From NCBI GenBank assembly GCA_045106415.1, contig JBGCEP010000012.1, positions 1 to 64,000 on the forward strand: a DNA stretch of 64,000 nt. Reading direction: 5' to 3'. Origin of the DNA: Oligoflexales bacterium. Its GTDB lineage: Bacteria > Bdellovibrionota_B > Oligoflexia > Oligoflexales > Bog-1112. Made by a program: the position numbers and the translations under genes. The notes below the pieces were generated by a model. The model was not told where the DNA came from. It did no database searches and was given only the letters and a program-made list of their open reading frames with translations. This document shows, in pieces, positions 335 through 35,640 of the stretch (within the stretch, counting starts at the first letter, position 1; each line of letters opens with the position of its first letter).

Positions 335-692
335 TGGTGGAGGCGGCGGGAATCGAACCCGCGTCCACACCTAGGGTATGAGAAGCGCTACATGCTTAGC
401 ACCGTAATTATCCTCTTGATTAGAACGCCTACGGTCAGGCTTTCTAACCCGCAGCCTGATTAAATGTCACACTTCAGCCTCCAGGCGGAAAGCTTTGTGT
501 TAAGCCAGCAGTAATAACGATGCCCCCGCGGCACTGGCGACCACAAGTTTATCGGCAGCTAATTTATATTAAGCTGCGAGTGCGTAATCGTTGCCGACTA
601 AGCGATGAAACGCGGTTATAACCGGGTCACGTTCCCACCCCGGACATGCTCTCCAGCACACCTTCTAAGCCCGTCGAAACCATGACGCCCCC
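335..692 (-). ncRNA. ssrA: tmRNA (one-piece, 358 nt); tag reading frame 595-569 encodes GNDYALAA*
   Basis: The minus strand starts GGGGGCGTCATGGTTTCGAC and ends GGTTCGATTCCCGCCGCCTCCACCA. The acceptor stem has the G3.U Ala identity pair. The internal frame GGC AAC GAT TAC GCA CTC GCA GCT TAA ends in the typical ALAA. Confidence 0.97.
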
Positions 693-854: not shown

Positions 855-1784
855 GTGTTGCAGTCCGTCTCTGTCTCATTTCAACAAGTATTTCTCATCC
901 ATTCCAAAAGCTCGTATGGCAGTTATACTGAAACCGTAAATGGAGATCATGTGAACAAAACCTATAATATTTTATACACCTGCCCAGTGGATCATGTTGG
1001 CACCTCTGTCTTCGTCAGAGGGTGGACATTTCCACAAAGTGAGCGAGCGCCCGTAATTTTCATTCATGACCTAGGTGAAACTGCTGATCAATACGACCGT
1101 TTTGCCCAATCAGTAACAGATATAGGCCACAGCGTTTATGGTTTTGACATGAGGGGTCATGGGCAATCAGGACGAAGGTTAGGTCACATCCCGAGCTTTC
1201 AGCATCTTGTGAATGATCTTTTACAAGTCGTTGCCTGGGTGCGGCATAAAGAAAAAGGAAGAAAACCAATTTTAATCGGCCAAGGCATTGGGAGTTTGGT
1301 TTTATTAGGATTTACAAAAGGTCATAGTAAACTTTGCGATTCTGCTGCATTTATATGCCCAACCTTCGCTCTCGCAGAAACGATACAACCATGGCGGCGA
1401 TTTCTACTACGAACCGCTGCTGAAGTTTTTCCAACCCTTATGACACCACAGTGGTTGCTTCCTGTTTTCACAGAACCCACTGCACAACAAAAACACCCTC
1501 GCATCAGCTACCTACTCACAAATGAACTCTTAAATGCTTTAGCTCAATCGAAAAAGCTTTTCAACAGACTCAATATCAAAACCCTTATGATTTGCCCTGA
1601 GGAAGATCGTATCTGTAAAACAGAGTATTTAAAAAAAGGTGTCCAAAAACATAAAAACTCAGAAAAATTCAATCTTATCTACAAACACAACATCGGTCAC
1701 TCTCCATTAAACCACGATGAAGAATACGCTCATCTTTTAAGTGACCTTCGCACATGGATGGAACCTCCCCTTGAAGGAACTTGA
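855..1784 (+). CDS. Alpha/beta hydrolase, lysophospholipase/monoglyceride lipase-like; nucleophile Ser absent; likely start GTG 951
   Basis: Motifs FDMRGHGQS and GHIPSF, with nucleophile elbow GQGIG. GGAG precedes GTG 951. Confidence 0.85.
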   Translation: MLQSVSVSFQQVFLIHSKSSYGSYTETVNGDHVNKTYNILYTCPVDHVGTSVFVRGWTFPQSERAPVIFIHDLGETADQYDRFAQSVTDIGHSVYGFDMRGHGQSGRRLGHIPSFQHLVNDLLQVVAWVRHKEKGRKPILIGQGIGSLVLLGFTKGHSKLCDSAAFICPTFALAETIQPWRRFLLRTAAEVFPTLMTPQWLLPVFTEPTAQQKHPRISYLLTNELLNALAQSKKLFNRLNIKTLMICPEEDRICKTEYLKKGVQKHKNSEKFNLIYKHNIGHSPLNHDEEYAHLLSDLRTWMEPPLEGT

Positions 1785-4131
1785 CACTTTTCAAGACCGT
1801 TTAATTACAATGCGTAAGACCCAACAAAGGATTCGTACATTATGTTGGTTATTGGCAACAATTGCCTTTACGGTATGTTTTATAGCTTTGTATCATTTCT
1901 GGTTAAACCCTGTTCCAATTACTGTATTACAGGTTTGCTTTTTACCTGGTATTATTTTTCTGTATCTCCGCAAAGAAACGCTCCCGAATTTTAATTTTTC
2001 CAAGCTTCGTCTTTTTTTTGATATGCAGCACCCTAATGAAAGCTCTCCTTTTACAGCTGGAGATCACATCTCCCACTACGTAGAGCAAGAGTTAAAATAT
2101 CAAATAGATCTTGAAAAGAAGACGACTCAAGCATGTATCCGTAAAACTCTTCCCATAGCTTTTGTTTTCACTCTTTTTGCCGGTGGAATGTTCAAATATG
2201 GTCACTTTCAACTCTCAGGCTTACACTTACTTATTCCCACTGAAGTCACCTTAGAAGTTGTGGAAGGTCATTTTACAAACTTTCAAGATGTCATCTTACC
2301 ACTACAGTCATCAACAACTCCTCAGATGCTTGAAACCCATAAGGATAATCTCTTCAAGCTCAGTATCACCCCTTTTCAAGGAAAAGATCTGTCGTTAAAT
2401 CTGATTGCTCCAAAGAGCAATCAATTGATTCAAAGCTTTCAACTACAGGCTGTCTATGAAAACTCTCAATCACCAATGGGTTACGGCCTCGAATTCACAA
2501 TTTCCGAGGACACCCTTCTCGTGATTCCAGAGCTAAGCTCTCAGCCGTATGCCTCTATACAGATTCTATCTAAGCCGATACCAAAAGTGACATTAGAACT
2601 TCAAGCTGAATACATAGATCCTTGGCCTGATCATCAAGCCGTCCCATTAAAACTAAAAATAAAATCTCAAAACCCTCTCCAAAAAGTTATTCTTGAATTT
2701 TCTGTTAACGGTCAAAAACACCAAGAGCATATCGAGTCGTTCACGACCTCAACACGGACAGCAGAGTACGACCATGCTCTTCACCTCGAACCATACCTTC
2801 AAGACGACATGGCTTCTGTAATCATTCACGCAATCGCGTTTGATCAGACACAACCTCAATCTCTTATGGGTTCAAGTGACCCTGTTTTTTTACGAGTTGC
2901 CAGTGCCTATGGCCGCTATTTACAAACACTTGACAAGCTACGAGCAATTAAAAAAGACGTTGATCAGTGGGTTGCTGAAGGAGAGCAGAAGAAAAATAAC
3001 CAAAGCCTTATAAAACAGATGCGAGACGTTGCTATTTCATCTAATGACTCCCCTTTTTTTGATGGCCTTGACCGTATTGAATTAAATCACATTGAGCATA
3101 TGATTTCACAAACCAAAACGAGCTCCCCTTCGGAGGCTCTTCAGGTAGCTAAAAAAATTGATTCTTTTCTACAAGATCACGAAATGCTCAATGACAGAGA
3201 GCGTGACAGAGATTTTTTTGTTGCTTTACGAGGCCTTTCTCGCCTTATAGAAACGCCTGGTCATCAGAATAAAAAACACATTCAATCAGCGACAAAAAGT
3301 TTAAATACATTCTTAACCGAAAGACAAAAAAGGTGGGAACAAAGGGTTAAAAAACTTAAAACACCACCACCGTCATGGGACCACCTTCAAAAAAATAGTT
3401 TTCAAAGCCAACTTCAAAAATTTTCTAAAAATCAACACACTTCACCTTCTTCTCGTATCACTACGAACACAGCAATAAAAACTCTCTCTCATTTGGGTCA
3501 ACAATATAGAAGATGGTTAAACGAACTGGAAGGCTTAGAAGACAAGCAAAAATCTCAGCAAGAACAGAAAAGACAACAAGGATTAGCCTCTGCAAAAGCA
3601 ACATTGAGAGAGCTTCAACAACGCCAAACGAAAATATCGACAACTCTTGATCAAGCTGAAACCCGCCAACAAAAAATTGATGCTCAATGGCCTCTTACTC
3701 GCATGAACCAGAACTCCAATATAAAACTTGCTCGTAAGCTCACCGCACAACTTCAGTCGCTTGCACCACAAGCCGCACAGCGATTATCAGCAGCTCACGA
3801 TTCCATGCTCGAAACAATTAAATACGGTGGTGAAAAACAATATCAAGCGGCCGAAACCTTTGCAGACCGTGCTGGCCGACTTCTTCGAGAAGCCAAGAAA
3901 AAAACATCACAAGCTCAACAAAAATCACACAAAAGAGGCCGCAGACGCCGCATCAGTGGTGATCGTTATTATGGACGATCTGTAAGCGGAGGAATGGACC
4001 TTCATCGAGAATACTCCGTCGATCGTAAATATCGCGAAGACATCCTCGATGAAGTCAGTCGTTCTGAGGATCAGCAAAGCCCTGAAGACGCAAGTCTTTT
4101 AAACTCTTACTTAAGACAAGTCATTCGTTAG
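1741..4131 (+). CDS. Large membrane-anchored protein with beta-rich middle and coiled-coil C-terminus (DUF4175-like)
   Basis: N-terminal TM segments, an Ig-like middle region, Q/K-rich helical repeats and a C-terminal 'YREDILD...YLRQV' pattern. The family assignment is by recollection. Confidence 0.6.
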
Positions 4132-10781: not shown

Positions 10782-11570
10782 ATGAAGCCATTTGACAAGT
10801 ATGCCTACTACAACCAATCTGTTCAGTCCCCTGAAGCCGATGTCGACTTCTTGCATATGGCGTACACCAAACTACGTGGAAAAGAGCCTCAGACGCTCCG
10901 TGAAGACTTCTGTGGAACTTTTTCCGTCTGCCGAACTTGGGTTCAAGGTTCAACACAGCATCACGCTGTAGGCATCGATTTAGATCCTGAACCTATCGCC
11001 TACGGAAAAGAACATGAATGGTCTCAACTCTCTGACCAAGAAAAACAACGGCTCACCATTCACCAAACAAACGTTCTTAACCCAGAAATTCCAAGCGCAG
11101 ATATCGTCTGCGCTCTCAACTTTAGTTACTTTATTTTTAAGGAAAGAAAACTTCTTAAATCTTACTTTCAAAACGTTTACAACACACTGGAAGAAGGTGG
11201 TGTCTTCGTTGTTGATTGCTTCGGCGGCAGTCAATGCCACGAGCCCATTGAAGATGAAACCGAATATGAAGATCTCGGCTTCAGCTACTATTGGGACCAG
11301 GATTCCTTCGACCCCATCACAAATGAAGCTCAATTTTACATCCACTTTCAACGCGACGGTGAAGCAAAACGAGAACAAGTTTTCTCATACGACTGGCGCA
11401 TGTGGACCCTACCTGAACTCAAAGATATCCTTGAAGAAGTTGGATTTAAAAAATCTCAAATCTTTTGGGAAGGGACAGAGGACGATGGAAGCGGAAACGG
11501 TGTGTTTGAAATGACAGACAAAGGAGAAGCCTGTGAAGCATGGGTCGCATATATTGCTGCCTGTAAATAA
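10782..11570 (+). CDS. Class I SAM-dependent methyltransferase
   Basis: LREDFCGT motif I, GIDLD, and GGVFVVDCFGG. Confidence 0.85.
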   Translation: MKPFDKYAYYNQSVQSPEADVDFLHMAYTKLRGKEPQTLREDFCGTFSVCRTWVQGSTQHHAVGIDLDPEPIAYGKEHEWSQLSDQEKQRLTIHQTNVLNPEIPSADIVCALNFSYFIFKERKLLKSYFQNVYNTLEEGGVFVVDCFGGSQCHEPIEDETEYEDLGFSYYWDQDSFDPITNEAQFYIHFQRDGEAKREQVFSYDWRMWTLPELKDILEEVGFKKSQIFWEGTEDDGSGNGVFEMTDKGEACEAWVAYIAACK

Positions 11571-11587
11571 CACATAGGCCTCAATAC

Positions 11588-11625
11588 ATAAGCCGCTAAT
11601 CGCTTGTTAAGCCTTAGCGGCTTAT
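11588..11625. terminator. 12-bp inverted repeat downstream of the methyltransferase
   Basis: ATAAGCCGCTAA-14 nt-TTAGCGGCTTAT; no U-tract follows. Confidence 0.45.
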
Positions 11626-11799
11626 AGAACATGACCACAGCAGTCACAATGCCTCTAGAAAAATTCCTCACAGTTCTCATACCGCGGCAAAAAAAACAAT
11701 AAGCTATGAATATAAAAAGAAAAAATGAGAAAACATCTTTTAAAAATTACGTATTTCTCCCCATTGTTTCTCAACATTCCCTCCTGTATAAAATAGTCA

Positions 11800-11911
11800 T
11801 AGCGGATCTCAGCACTCAAATCACCGCAGCTTGGAACATCAGGTCACTCAACCTCTCTTTGCTCCAAGAGCTCGCTCTCAGTTCCATCACGACTGAGAGC
11901 GATTTTTTTTT
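11800..11911 (+). ncRNA. Candidate three-hairpin small RNA with intrinsic terminator
   Basis: A promoter-like TTGTTT...TATAAAAT (11764-11794) precedes it. Two hairpins carry CACTCA in their loops. The terminator is TCGCTCTCAGT/ACTGAGAGCGA followed by a T9 run. Confidence 0.65.
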
Positions 11912-11934
11912 ATCAAATAAAAAATTCGTGATAT

Positions 11935-12303
11935 ATGCTTCATGAGCACTGTGCTGCTATGGAGATCGAGCTCATTCAACTCAACACCACTCACAACGAA
12001 CTGATTGAAGTCATCCGCGCCACAGGTGAGAGGCTTGCTCAACAAAGACAGGCCACCCAGCGCCTTAAGGATTTAGCGCCGACAAAGCGCCAACAACTGG
12101 TACAAAAGCTAAGACCAGAGTCACGCTCTGTCGCTCAAGCTGAGCGAAAAGCCCTCCTCCACGAAGATTACTTACAGCTTCTCGAAGAAATATTAGAAGC
12201 ACGCCAAAAGCTTTTTCAACTTAAAGTTCAGTGGGAAGATGCTCAGATGCTTTACAATGCCAGAAAAAGTCTCGATTCTTGGCATAAAGCTTTTCTTTTT
12301 TGA
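11935..12303 (+). CDS. Hypothetical coiled-coil protein
   Basis: 122-aa helical ORF containing 'SVAQAERKAL...Y'. Confidence 0.65.
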   Translation: MLHEHCAAMEIELIQLNTTHNELIEVIRATGERLAQQRQATQRLKDLAPTKRQQLVQKLRPESRSVAQAERKALLHEDYLQLLEEILEARQKLFQLKVQWEDAQMLYNARKSLDSWHKAFLF

Positions 12304-12372: not shown

Positions 12373-14319
12373 ATGTCTTCGGTGTTTTTCATCATGATTG
12401 TAGGATCTTCTTTCGGTTTTTTTGCATACAGAGTTTCTCAAGCCTGGAAAGAACTCCACGCTGCAGCAACAGGGAAAGATGTTTTAGCTGAAATTTCTTT
12501 TAGCACAAAAGTCAAAACAATTCTTTTTGAAGGCTTTGCTCAAGCAAAACTTTTTAAAGACCCTGTTCCTGGGATCATGCACGCTATGATTTTTTGGGGC
12601 TTTCTTGTCGTCAGCCTTGGAACCTTAGAAACTTTACTTGAAGGCGTGATTCCACATTTTCGGTTTTCTTGGATCATTGGAGAAGGTTTTTTATACAAAG
12701 GGTTTTTAGTCTCTCAAGATATTGGTAATACAGTTGTGGCTATTGCTATTTTGTTTGCCATCTGCAGACGCTTATTTTTTCCTCCAGAGCGACTTCAAAC
12801 TCTTTCTCAAGAGGCTAAAAATGATGCCTATATCGTCTTAAGTTTTATCCTAACCCTTGTCACTAGTGAACTTATGAGTATGGGAAGTGATCCTGCTCTT
12901 TCTGTTTTCTTTCTTCCTGTTTCACACCTTTTTCAAATACTTTTATCTGAGAGCGCACATCCTATCGCATGGTGGCTTCATGTATTTACATTATGCGGCT
13001 TTGTTATTTATCTTCCGACTTCAAAACACCAGCATCTCATTTGGATTTGGCCTAACCTCTTTTACAAACAACATCGATCTAGTGGGTGGTTGCGCCCTAT
13101 GGAGTTTGATGAAGAAGCCGAATCTTTTGGGGTTGGTCATGCCTCAGAATTCACATGGAAACAACTTCTTGAATCCAAAGCATGCGTCGAATGCGGAAGA
13201 TGCACCTCAGTATGTCCAGCCCACACAACAGGAAAGAAGCTCGACCCTCGACATATGATTCATCATCTTAAAGACGGACTTGCCCAAGCAAAAGAAAACC
13301 CTAAAATGCCGGGTGGCATCGTCAGCCAAGAAGAACTCTGGGCATGCACAACATGTGGAGCATGTGTCGATGCATGCCCTCTGCATATTGAGCACATTCC
13401 AGCTATTGTTGATATGCGACGCTATCTCACTATGACCGAAGGTGATGTCCCTGCAGAACTTCAAAGCACACTCGAAAATTTAGAAGTTCACTCGAACCCT
13501 TGGGGCATGAATAACGACGATAGAGAAAAATGGGCCGAAGGCCTGAATGTCCCAGTCATGAGAGAAAAGGACGAAGCTCCTGAGTACTTATTTTGGGTCG
13601 GCTGCGCAGGTGCTTTTGATGATCGCTACAAAAACGTAACTCAATCCACTGCAAAAATTATGCAAAACGCAGGCCTTGATTTCGCTATTCTTGGAAAAGA
13701 AGAACGCTGCAACGGCGATACAGCAAGAAGAGCTGGAAATGAATATTTAGCATCGATGCAAATCGCTGAGAATGTCGAGACCTTCAAACGCTACAAAGTA
13801 CAAAAAGTAGTCACAGGCTGCCCTCATTGCTTCAACACACTCCGCAACGAATACCCTGACTTTGATTGCAACCTAGAAGTCATTCACCACAGCGAACTTA
13901 TTGAATCTTTAGTCAACGATGGAAAAATCACCCCTAAACAATCTAATGACGTTTCCAGCGTGACATGGCACGATTCCTGCTACCTTGGTCGTCACAACAA
14001 AGTCTACGACAGCCCCAGAAAAGCCCTCAGCAGCACCGTCCCTGAAGTCGTTGAAATGCCTCGCAACAAATCAAACGGTTTCTGCTGCGGCGCTGGTGGC
14101 GCAAGAATGTGGATGGAAGAAACAGAAGGAGAACGAGTCAACGTCAATAGAGCTAAAGAAGCCATAGCAACTGGGGTCTCAACTGTTGCTACCGGTTGCC
14201 CTTTCTGCCTTACCATGCTCACAGACGGAGTCACAGCAGAAGAAGCCTCTGACAAAGTTCAAGTAAAAGATGTTGCAGAAATTATAGCTGAAGCACTTCC
14301 TGATCATCAACCTAGCTGA
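12373..14319 (+). CDS. Membrane-bound heterodisulfide reductase-related Fe-S oxidoreductase (FadF-like)
   Basis: N-terminal TM domain, two CxxCxxCxxxCP ferredoxin motifs and two CCG-type domains (HDSCYLGRHN, CCGAGG, GCPFC). Confidence 0.9.
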   Translation: MSSVFFIMIVGSSFGFFAYRVSQAWKELHAAATGKDVLAEISFSTKVKTILFEGFAQAKLFKDPVPGIMHAMIFWGFLVVSLGTLETLLEGVIPHFRFSWIIGEGFLYKGFLVSQDIGNTVVAIAILFAICRRLFFPPERLQTLSQEAKNDAYIVLSFILTLVTSELMSMGSDPALSVFFLPVSHLFQILLSESAHPIAWWLHVFTLCGFVIYLPTSKHQHLIWIWPNLFYKQHRSSGWLRPMEFDEEAESFGVGHASEFTWKQLLESKACVECGRCTSVCPAHTTGKKLDPRHMIHHLKDGLAQAKENPKMPGGIVSQEELWACTTCGACVDACPLHIEHIPAIVDMRRYLTMTEGDVPAELQSTLENLEVHSNPWGMNNDDREKWAEGLNVPVMREKDEAPEYLFWVGCAGAFDDRYKNVTQSTAKIMQNAGLDFAILGKEERCNGDTARRAGNEYLASMQIAENVETFKRYKVQKVVTGCPHCFNTLRNEYPDFDCNLEVIHHSELIESLVNDGKITPKQSNDVSSVTWHDSCYLGRHNKVYDSPRKALSSTVPEVVEMPRNKSNGFCCGAGGARMWMEETEGERVNVNRAKEAIATGVSTVATGCPFCLTMLTDGVTAEEASDKVQVKDVAEIIAEALPDHQPS

Positions 14320-35564: not shown

Positions 35565-35640
35565 TGGTGGAGATAAGCGGAATCGAACCGCTGACCTATA
35601 CAATGCCATTGTATCGCTCTACCAACTGAGCTATATCCCC
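35565..35640 (-). tRNA. tRNA-Ala(GGC)
   Basis: GGGGATATAGCTCAGTTGGTAGAGCG-ATACA-ATGGCAT-TGTAT-AGGTCAGCGGTTCGATTCCGCTTATCTCCACCA, 76 nt with encoded CCA. TTGACA upstream at 35681-35676. Confidence 0.98.

Follow-up and report, generated by a model that had tools for sequence, protein, structure and literature searches.

In the window, by which we mean the whole 64,000-nucleotide stretch of DNA analysed here, positions 11799-11911 of the forward strand may constitute a lineage-specific, stand-alone small RNA (sRNA) gene with a transcript of about 110 nt. We put this reading forward tentatively and with some doubt, on the basis of the sequence. The locus comprises a strong intrinsic terminator in an orphan position, an island of elevated GC content and a repeated loop motif, contains no credible open reading frame (ORF) and matches no known RNA family (Table 1). 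Its robust features are the terminator, the distance between this terminator and the preceding gene, the lack of a credible ORF and the GC island, whereas hairpins 1 and 2 and the promoter-like site are weak. An earlier note on this DNA had described positions 11764-11911 (+) as a three-hairpin sRNA preceded by a promoter-like element; all the letters and coordinates it gave for this region were correct on re-reading, and the CACTCAA motif that it reported in the loop of hairpin 1 and again at the tip of hairpin 2 is indeed present at both places, with the second copy at 11845-11851.

Table 1. Features of the candidate sRNA locus and of its neighbouring genes (positions in the window)
Feature	Position	Strand	Remarks
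Class I methyltransferase-like gene, 262 aa	10782-11570	+	Upstream gene (context)
Perfect 12-bp inverted repeat, 14-nt loop, no T-run	11588-11625	+	18 nt past the methyltransferase stop
-35-like hexamer TTGTTT	11764-11769	+	3/6 match to TTGACA
-10-like hexamer TATAAA	11787-11792	+	5/6 match; 17-nt spacer to the -35-like TTGTTT
Predicted transcript, ~110-113 nt	11799-11911	+	Start inferred from the -10 position, end from the terminator
Hairpin 1	11802-11827	+	4-bp stem GCGG/CCGC; 18-nt loop with CACUCAA (11813-11819)
Hairpin 2, imperfect	11830-11868	+	Basal stem CUUGGA/UCCAAG; apical AGGU/ACCU around the hexaloop CACUCA (11845-11850)
Intrinsic terminator stem-loop (hairpin 3)	11872-11902	+	12 pairs (11 Watson-Crick, 1 G-U); 7-nt loop
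Terminator T9 tract	11903-11911	+	Read from the sequence
Coiled-coil ORF, 122 aa, without known family	11935-12303	+	Downstream gene (context)
Membrane CCG/4Fe-4S oxidoreductase gene	12373-14319	+	Next after the 122-aa ORF

The locus ends in an orphan terminator and lies in a GC island

The third hairpin had been described earlier as a perfect 11-bp stem followed by nine T residues; the 11 Watson-Crick pairs and the T9 tract are both there, and an additional G-U pair brings the stem to 12 pairs. We compared this terminator with others of the same genome, using a crude map of 2397 ORFs (87% coding, ORF starts being longest-ORF guesses) and a strict terminator scan, which found 164 terminators, 86 of them intergenic and with a co-directional upstream gene. 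The stem lies 302 nt beyond the upstream stop codon, compared with a genome median of 29.5 nt (interquartile range 23-43, n=86), and only seven of these 86 terminators are located at least 250 nt beyond the upstream stop. It is also one of the 25 out of 164 in which the stem has 10 or more pairs and seven or more T residues follow. Strict terminators are scarce in this genome, with 164 (103 of them outside the crude ORFs) against approximately 2400 ORFs, and several strong ones sit just 8-44 nt 5' of the next co-directional ORF start, as far as the longest-ORF guesses place these starts.

An ORF scan of the gap between the methyltransferase gene and the terminator found no ORF of at least 20 aa ending before the terminator. 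The sole long ORF that crosses this stretch (79 aa, 11706-11945) reads through the terminator, and it has no Pfam match and no relative among 40 related genomes. In the terms of the generic test for sRNA genes, the terminator is therefore Rho-independent and, given its distance from the upstream stop and the lack of an ORF ending before it, not attributable to a protein gene. The methyltransferase gene probably has a 3' hairpin of its own, namely the inverted repeat at 11588-11625, which may be a terminator without a U-tract or a stabilising 3' hairpin.

The base composition changes sharply where the transcript is predicted to begin. Over 11799-11898 the GC content is 0.51 (intergenic average 0.364, sd 0.071), a value reached by only 2.6% of the 27,452 intergenic 100-nt windows; the 109 nt upstream of the predicted transcript (11690-11798) have a GC content of 0.257. 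Such a step at 11798/11799 is what a promoter would be expected to show. The orphan terminator, the upstream gene's own hairpin, the lack of an ORF and the GC island jointly appear to favour, without proving, a separate non-coding unit.

Folding strength, the loop repeat and the promoter-like site

The folding of the unit was compared with 200 shuffled sequences. The terminator was more stable than any of them (z -5.76; 0/200 shuffles as stable), while hairpin 2 (-10.7 kcal/mol, z -2.02) was equalled by six of the 200 and hairpin 1 (-4.6 kcal/mol, z -1.05) by 31. Without the terminator, the 73-nt body reached a z-score of -1.12, with 24/200 shuffles equally stable. The minimum free energy of the entire unit (11799-11911) was -34.6 kcal/mol, and its z-score of -4.56 is, given the values for terminator and body, owed almost entirely to the terminator. 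The supposed three-hairpin architecture is in fact made of one strong terminator, one modest hairpin (hairpin 2) and one hairpin at chance level (hairpin 1). The proposal of a stand-alone sRNA thus retains the strong orphan terminator, the lack of an ORF and the GC island after an AT-rich stretch, whereas its body folds like shuffled sequence.

We assessed the repeated CACUCA(A) motif with 3000 dinucleotide shuffles of the body, counting repeated k-mers as well as copies located in two different hairpin loops. Some repeated 7-mer occurred in 512/3000 shuffles, and copies in two different hairpin loops in only 4/3000; for repeated 6-mers, the corresponding numbers were 1575/3000 and 19/3000. 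Genome-wide (2.9 Mb), same-strand CACTCAA pairs 10-60 nt apart were observed five times against 3.8 expected, and a repeat of this kind, taken by itself, is thus to be expected from a post hoc look at a genome of this size. The loop repeat is real and unusual locally but unremarkable genome-wide, and it is notable only if the place is chosen on other grounds. Two more same-sense ACTCA(A) motifs, AACTCAAC and CACTCAC, lie within the initial 60 nt of the 122-aa ORF (11979-11995). ACTCA as such occurs four times in 202 nt at this locus, against 0.25 expected; yet 32 such clusters are found across the genome. Another 16 terminators of the genome are orphans separated from the upstream gene by 120 nt or more, and neither CACTCA nor, by eye, any other common motif was found in the ~130 nt preceding them.

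The promoter-like element that the earlier note placed directly 5' of the RNA is present and correctly spaced, but TTGTTT-17-TATAAA agrees with the sigma-70-type consensus at only 8 of 12 positions, a quality that is common by chance. Indeed, sites scoring at least 8/12 occur at 1.11 per 100 nt per strand in the intergenic DNA of this genome, and the 390-nt region scanned around the element holds five further sites of such quality. The element was absent from the output of a consensus promoter scanner. Judged in this way, the match appears weak, being of ordinary quality and of the frequency that chance would give in AT-rich intergenic DNA here. The spacing of the -35/-10 pair would give a transcript of ~110 nt. 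A weak second candidate promoter, TTATCA-16-TATATG, is located at 11910-11937, between the terminator and the downstream ORF.

Search for known families and relatives

At gathering thresholds, Rfam 15 returned only tmRNA and tRNA for the whole window, that is, a tmRNA at 335-692 (-) with the tag GNDYALAA and a tRNA-Ala (GGC) at 35565-35640 (-). Relaxing the threshold to E <=10 for positions 11600-12050 added three minus-strand matches with E values of 4.7-10, far under gathering. Literature searches, judged by title and abstract, yielded no such RNA for Oligoflexia and, for a CACUCA loop, only unrelated work on miRNAs or algorithms; together with the lack of an Rfam family, this agrees with the earlier description of the element as undescribed.

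The collection of homologues that had been suggested recovered none, whether from 40 relatives, the order, the family, metagenome loci or pattern scans of 185,579 species. BLAST of the element yielded noise only, both in the 40 relatives and in its own genome, where no copy was found elsewhere (single-copy element), and there was no plasmid match. Homologue searches used a single-sequence covariance model of the element. Over the order (95 genomes, namely 94 others and its own), this model gave four weak hits, none of them credible; the two best (E ~0.04) lay inside the EF-G gene (fusA) and are hence not homologues. In 16 family genomes searched with laxer filters, the best hit (E 0.57) was dissimilar on inspection. 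Searching metagenomes with the 122-aa protein gave no relatives, while the CCG protein led to 80 loci, none of them more than 69% identical, in which the covariance model found nothing. Two pattern scans of the 185,579 species returned zero hits and one hit, respectively, and the lone hit, on a Corynebacterium contig, scored 5.9 bits with the covariance model and is a chance match. No element-like sequence was seen 5' of orthologous 122-aa genes in the 11 relatives' loci inspected.

These failed searches say little on selection because no close genome is available in the collections: the genus is represented by this genome alone, and synteny at this locus does not extend to other genera. The sequencing runs that contain the stretch are two DNA runs of one study, one of which is possibly the source sample, with no RNA run listed; the contigs of the second DNA run leave out positions 11546-12028 and hence showed no natural variants of the element.

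The locus lies at a gene-order junction

The flanking genes are widespread among the 40 relatives. The methyltransferase is present in 34 of them, and the DNA 3' of it differs in all 24 relatives' loci listed as well as in the 11 family members inspected. Relatives of the 122-aa coiled-coil protein, which has no Pfam or NCBIfam match, occur in 35 of the 40 genomes; most genomes with the family have two matches, and the second one in this genome is at C18:48586-48882. Because these relatives align only from residue ~11-22 onward, the second ATG (11959) is the likelier start of the ORF.

Several relatives keep the 122-aa gene and the CCG gene side by side. Elsewhere in the order, in other families, a ~490-aa gene whose product ends in ...YL..(I/V)(I/V)R directly precedes the 122-aa gene. 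The orthologue of this ~490-aa gene is found here at 1741-4131 of the window, ~7.8 kb upstream and followed by a convergent gene. Given that it is now separate, the ancestral three-gene order has been broken here, and the spacer is a lineage-specific junction.

Alternative explanations

Such a junction might also hold nothing but a bare terminator, which would stop read-through from the methyltransferase gene or insulate the downstream operon, with the 300-nt spacer being rearrangement junction DNA and the hairpins and heptamer being owed to chance or to a small duplication within the locus. The parting of the 122-aa gene from the ~490-aa gene, the different sequence 3' of the methyltransferase in every relative inspected, the shuffle-like folding of the body (z -1.12), the chance rate of the promoter-like match, the lack of any conservation or TTGAGTG enrichment found and a methyltransferase hairpin that, without a T-run, may not terminate are all in line with this. 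However, a GC island within the top 2.6% beside a stretch of 26% GC is unlike neutral spacer DNA drifting towards AT, the location of one 7-mer in two hairpin loops was seen in just 4/3000 shuffles, and the distance from stop to terminator is atypical; on balance, we consider a bare terminator possible though rather unlikely. The rearranged locus and a coding-like composition (GC 0.51) would also suit a GC-rich body left as the decayed 3' terminus of a protein gene that was lost while its native terminator survived. This we regard as highly improbable: no + frame has a stop codon within ~11803-11893, where the stop of such a gene would be expected, and the 79-aa frame has no relatives (the protein search covered this frame of the three).

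An attenuator for the downstream genes had already been mentioned in the earlier note as the alternative to an sRNA. Transcription would then start at the 11764-11792 promoter and the RNA would act in cis as a 5' leader, with the terminator gating read-through into the 122-aa ORF and, after it, the CCG/Fe-S oxidoreductase gene, a co-directional pair that has been severed from the gene which ancestrally preceded it. From the end of the T-tract it is 24 nt to the first ATG (11935) and 48 nt to the likelier start, with only the weak alternative promoter TTATCA-16-TATATG in between. As long as the 3' arm has not yet been transcribed, UGGAAC (11832-11837) may instead bind GUUCCA (11881-11886), at -16.9 versus -15.3 kcal/mol, but this 6-bp alternative pairing would displace only 3 of the 12 terminator pairs and hardly amounts to a convincing antiterminator. 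Segments of the leader are also partially complementary to the start region of the ORF (best inverted repeat, 17/23 nt); even so, this start region ranks 276th among 2383 for predicted pairing with the RNA. Moreover, Rfam gave neither an aptamer nor a leader family, the ORF scan showed no leader peptide that has a ribosome-binding site, and nothing similar lies 5' of the orthologous 122-aa genes in the relatives inspected. Known attenuators and riboswitch platforms share with this locus a strong terminator 24-48 nt 5' of a co-directional ORF, preceded by a hairpin leader of ~75 nt; unlike them, it has no aptamer match, no strong antiterminator and no conservation upstream of the orthologues. 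We therefore hold a cis-acting leader to be unlikely.

A possible mode of action and comparison with known RNA systems

If the locus is a stand-alone sRNA gene, transcription would start just 3' of the weak sigma-70-like promoter, and the resulting ~110-nt non-coding RNA would end at the very efficient intrinsic terminator; we infer from the sequence both that this promoter could fire and that a discrete RNA could accumulate, and any target or mechanism is to be read in the same way. In the case of a regulator, the CACUCA hexaloop of hairpin 2 would be its best-exposed element, with the same heptamer also present in hairpin 1, a large region that is in essence unstructured, and the RNA might bind G/U-rich (UUGAGUG-like) mRNA sites through short antisense duplexes, without Hfq or ProQ. 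Neither Hfq (PF17209) nor ProQ (PF04352) was found in this genome, which is estimated to be 93.8% complete; this does not prove that they are absent. An enrichment of TTGAGTG in 5' regions, which would fit such pairing and had been proposed as a check, was not borne out: from -60 to +30 of the ORF starts, the heptamer occurred 27 times against 22.5 expected and ranked 63rd among 140 7-mers of the same composition, and several of the hits, at 0 or -4, are artefacts of longest-ORF starts.

The earlier note had drawn parallels with Csr-type sponges and cuckoo-type sRNAs, and both fail. Csr/Rsm sponges display numerous GGA motifs, either in the loops of hairpins or in single-stranded linkers. The candidate resembles CsrB/RsmY/RsmZ in its repeated loop motif, and the genome does encode CsrA (one PF02599 match above cut-off, C78:12696-12848). 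However, its only two GGA motifs (11804-11806 and 11834-11836) lie in stems or at stem edges and thus outside loops, its loop motif is present in two copies only, and CACUCA(A) is not a CsrA site. Cuckoo-type sRNAs of Alphaproteobacteria likewise have an identical motif in several hairpin loops, but they occur as multiple paralogous copies per genome and carry C/U-rich anti-Shine-Dalgarno loops, whereas the candidate is a single-copy element with two motif copies, its CACUCA is not a CCUCC-type anti-Shine-Dalgarno sequence, and it has no Rfam match.

In overall layout, the candidate may resemble RoxS/RsaE of Firmicutes, which are terminator-ended trans-acting sRNAs with one short, C-rich motif in several loops. 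Like them, it is ~100-110 nt long, has a strong Rho-independent terminator behind its hairpins and the same short motif in two loops, and is encoded between unrelated genes. It differs in that its motif is CACUCA(A) instead of a C-rich anti-Shine-Dalgarno sequence, and in having no conservation beyond one genome, no target enrichment and no Rfam match. The candidate would be, at most, another generic terminator-ended sRNA, as yet unverified.

If expressed, the RNA would be among the first sRNA candidates in uncultured Oligoflexales, and would represent a young, lineage-private riboregulator at a gene-order breakpoint in a genome without detected Hfq or ProQ. For now it is a singleton, still unverified, that opens no long-standing question, and its practical value would be that of a test locus should metatranscriptomes or more genomes of the genus become available.

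Candidate targets

Targets were ranked by co-folding the RNA with 2383 start regions (mean ddG -5.4, sd 3.5). A transpeptidase-domain gene came first (ddG -26.7), followed by a pentapeptide-repeat/IBR-like gene at C18:24604-26124 (-) (ddG -20.6). A single control with a shuffled body reached -25.6, -24.8 and -23.5; given that this control equals the best targets, the ranked genes are leads only and not evidence. A ranking by duplex energy was dropped, as its energies came from long gapped duplexes and the terminator itself forms part of the neighbour's start window.

In the start region of C18:24604-26124, AGGUUGAGUGAC complements the hairpin 2 tip perfectly over 12 nt and spans the likely ribosome-binding site and the start codon, and a second GGUUGAGU site lies 11 nt upstream of it. 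A more elaborate version of the sRNA reading would thus be a de novo, genus-specific riboregulator born at the rearrangement junction, whose two CACUCA(A) loops would either clamp an mRNA at tandem GGUUGAGU sites, with C18:24604-26124 as the best candidate, or mimic the ACUCA(A) cluster at the beginning of the 122-aa ORF and thereby titrate an unknown RNA-binding protein away from this ORF. We regard this elaboration as very unlikely. Along C18:26100-26160 (-), the sites read as a tandem GGTTGAGT-AAA-GGTTGAGTGAC, with the second GGTTGAGT 11 nt upstream. The pentapeptide-repeat/IBR-like protein encoded there is 506 aa long and has a signal-peptide-like N-terminus.
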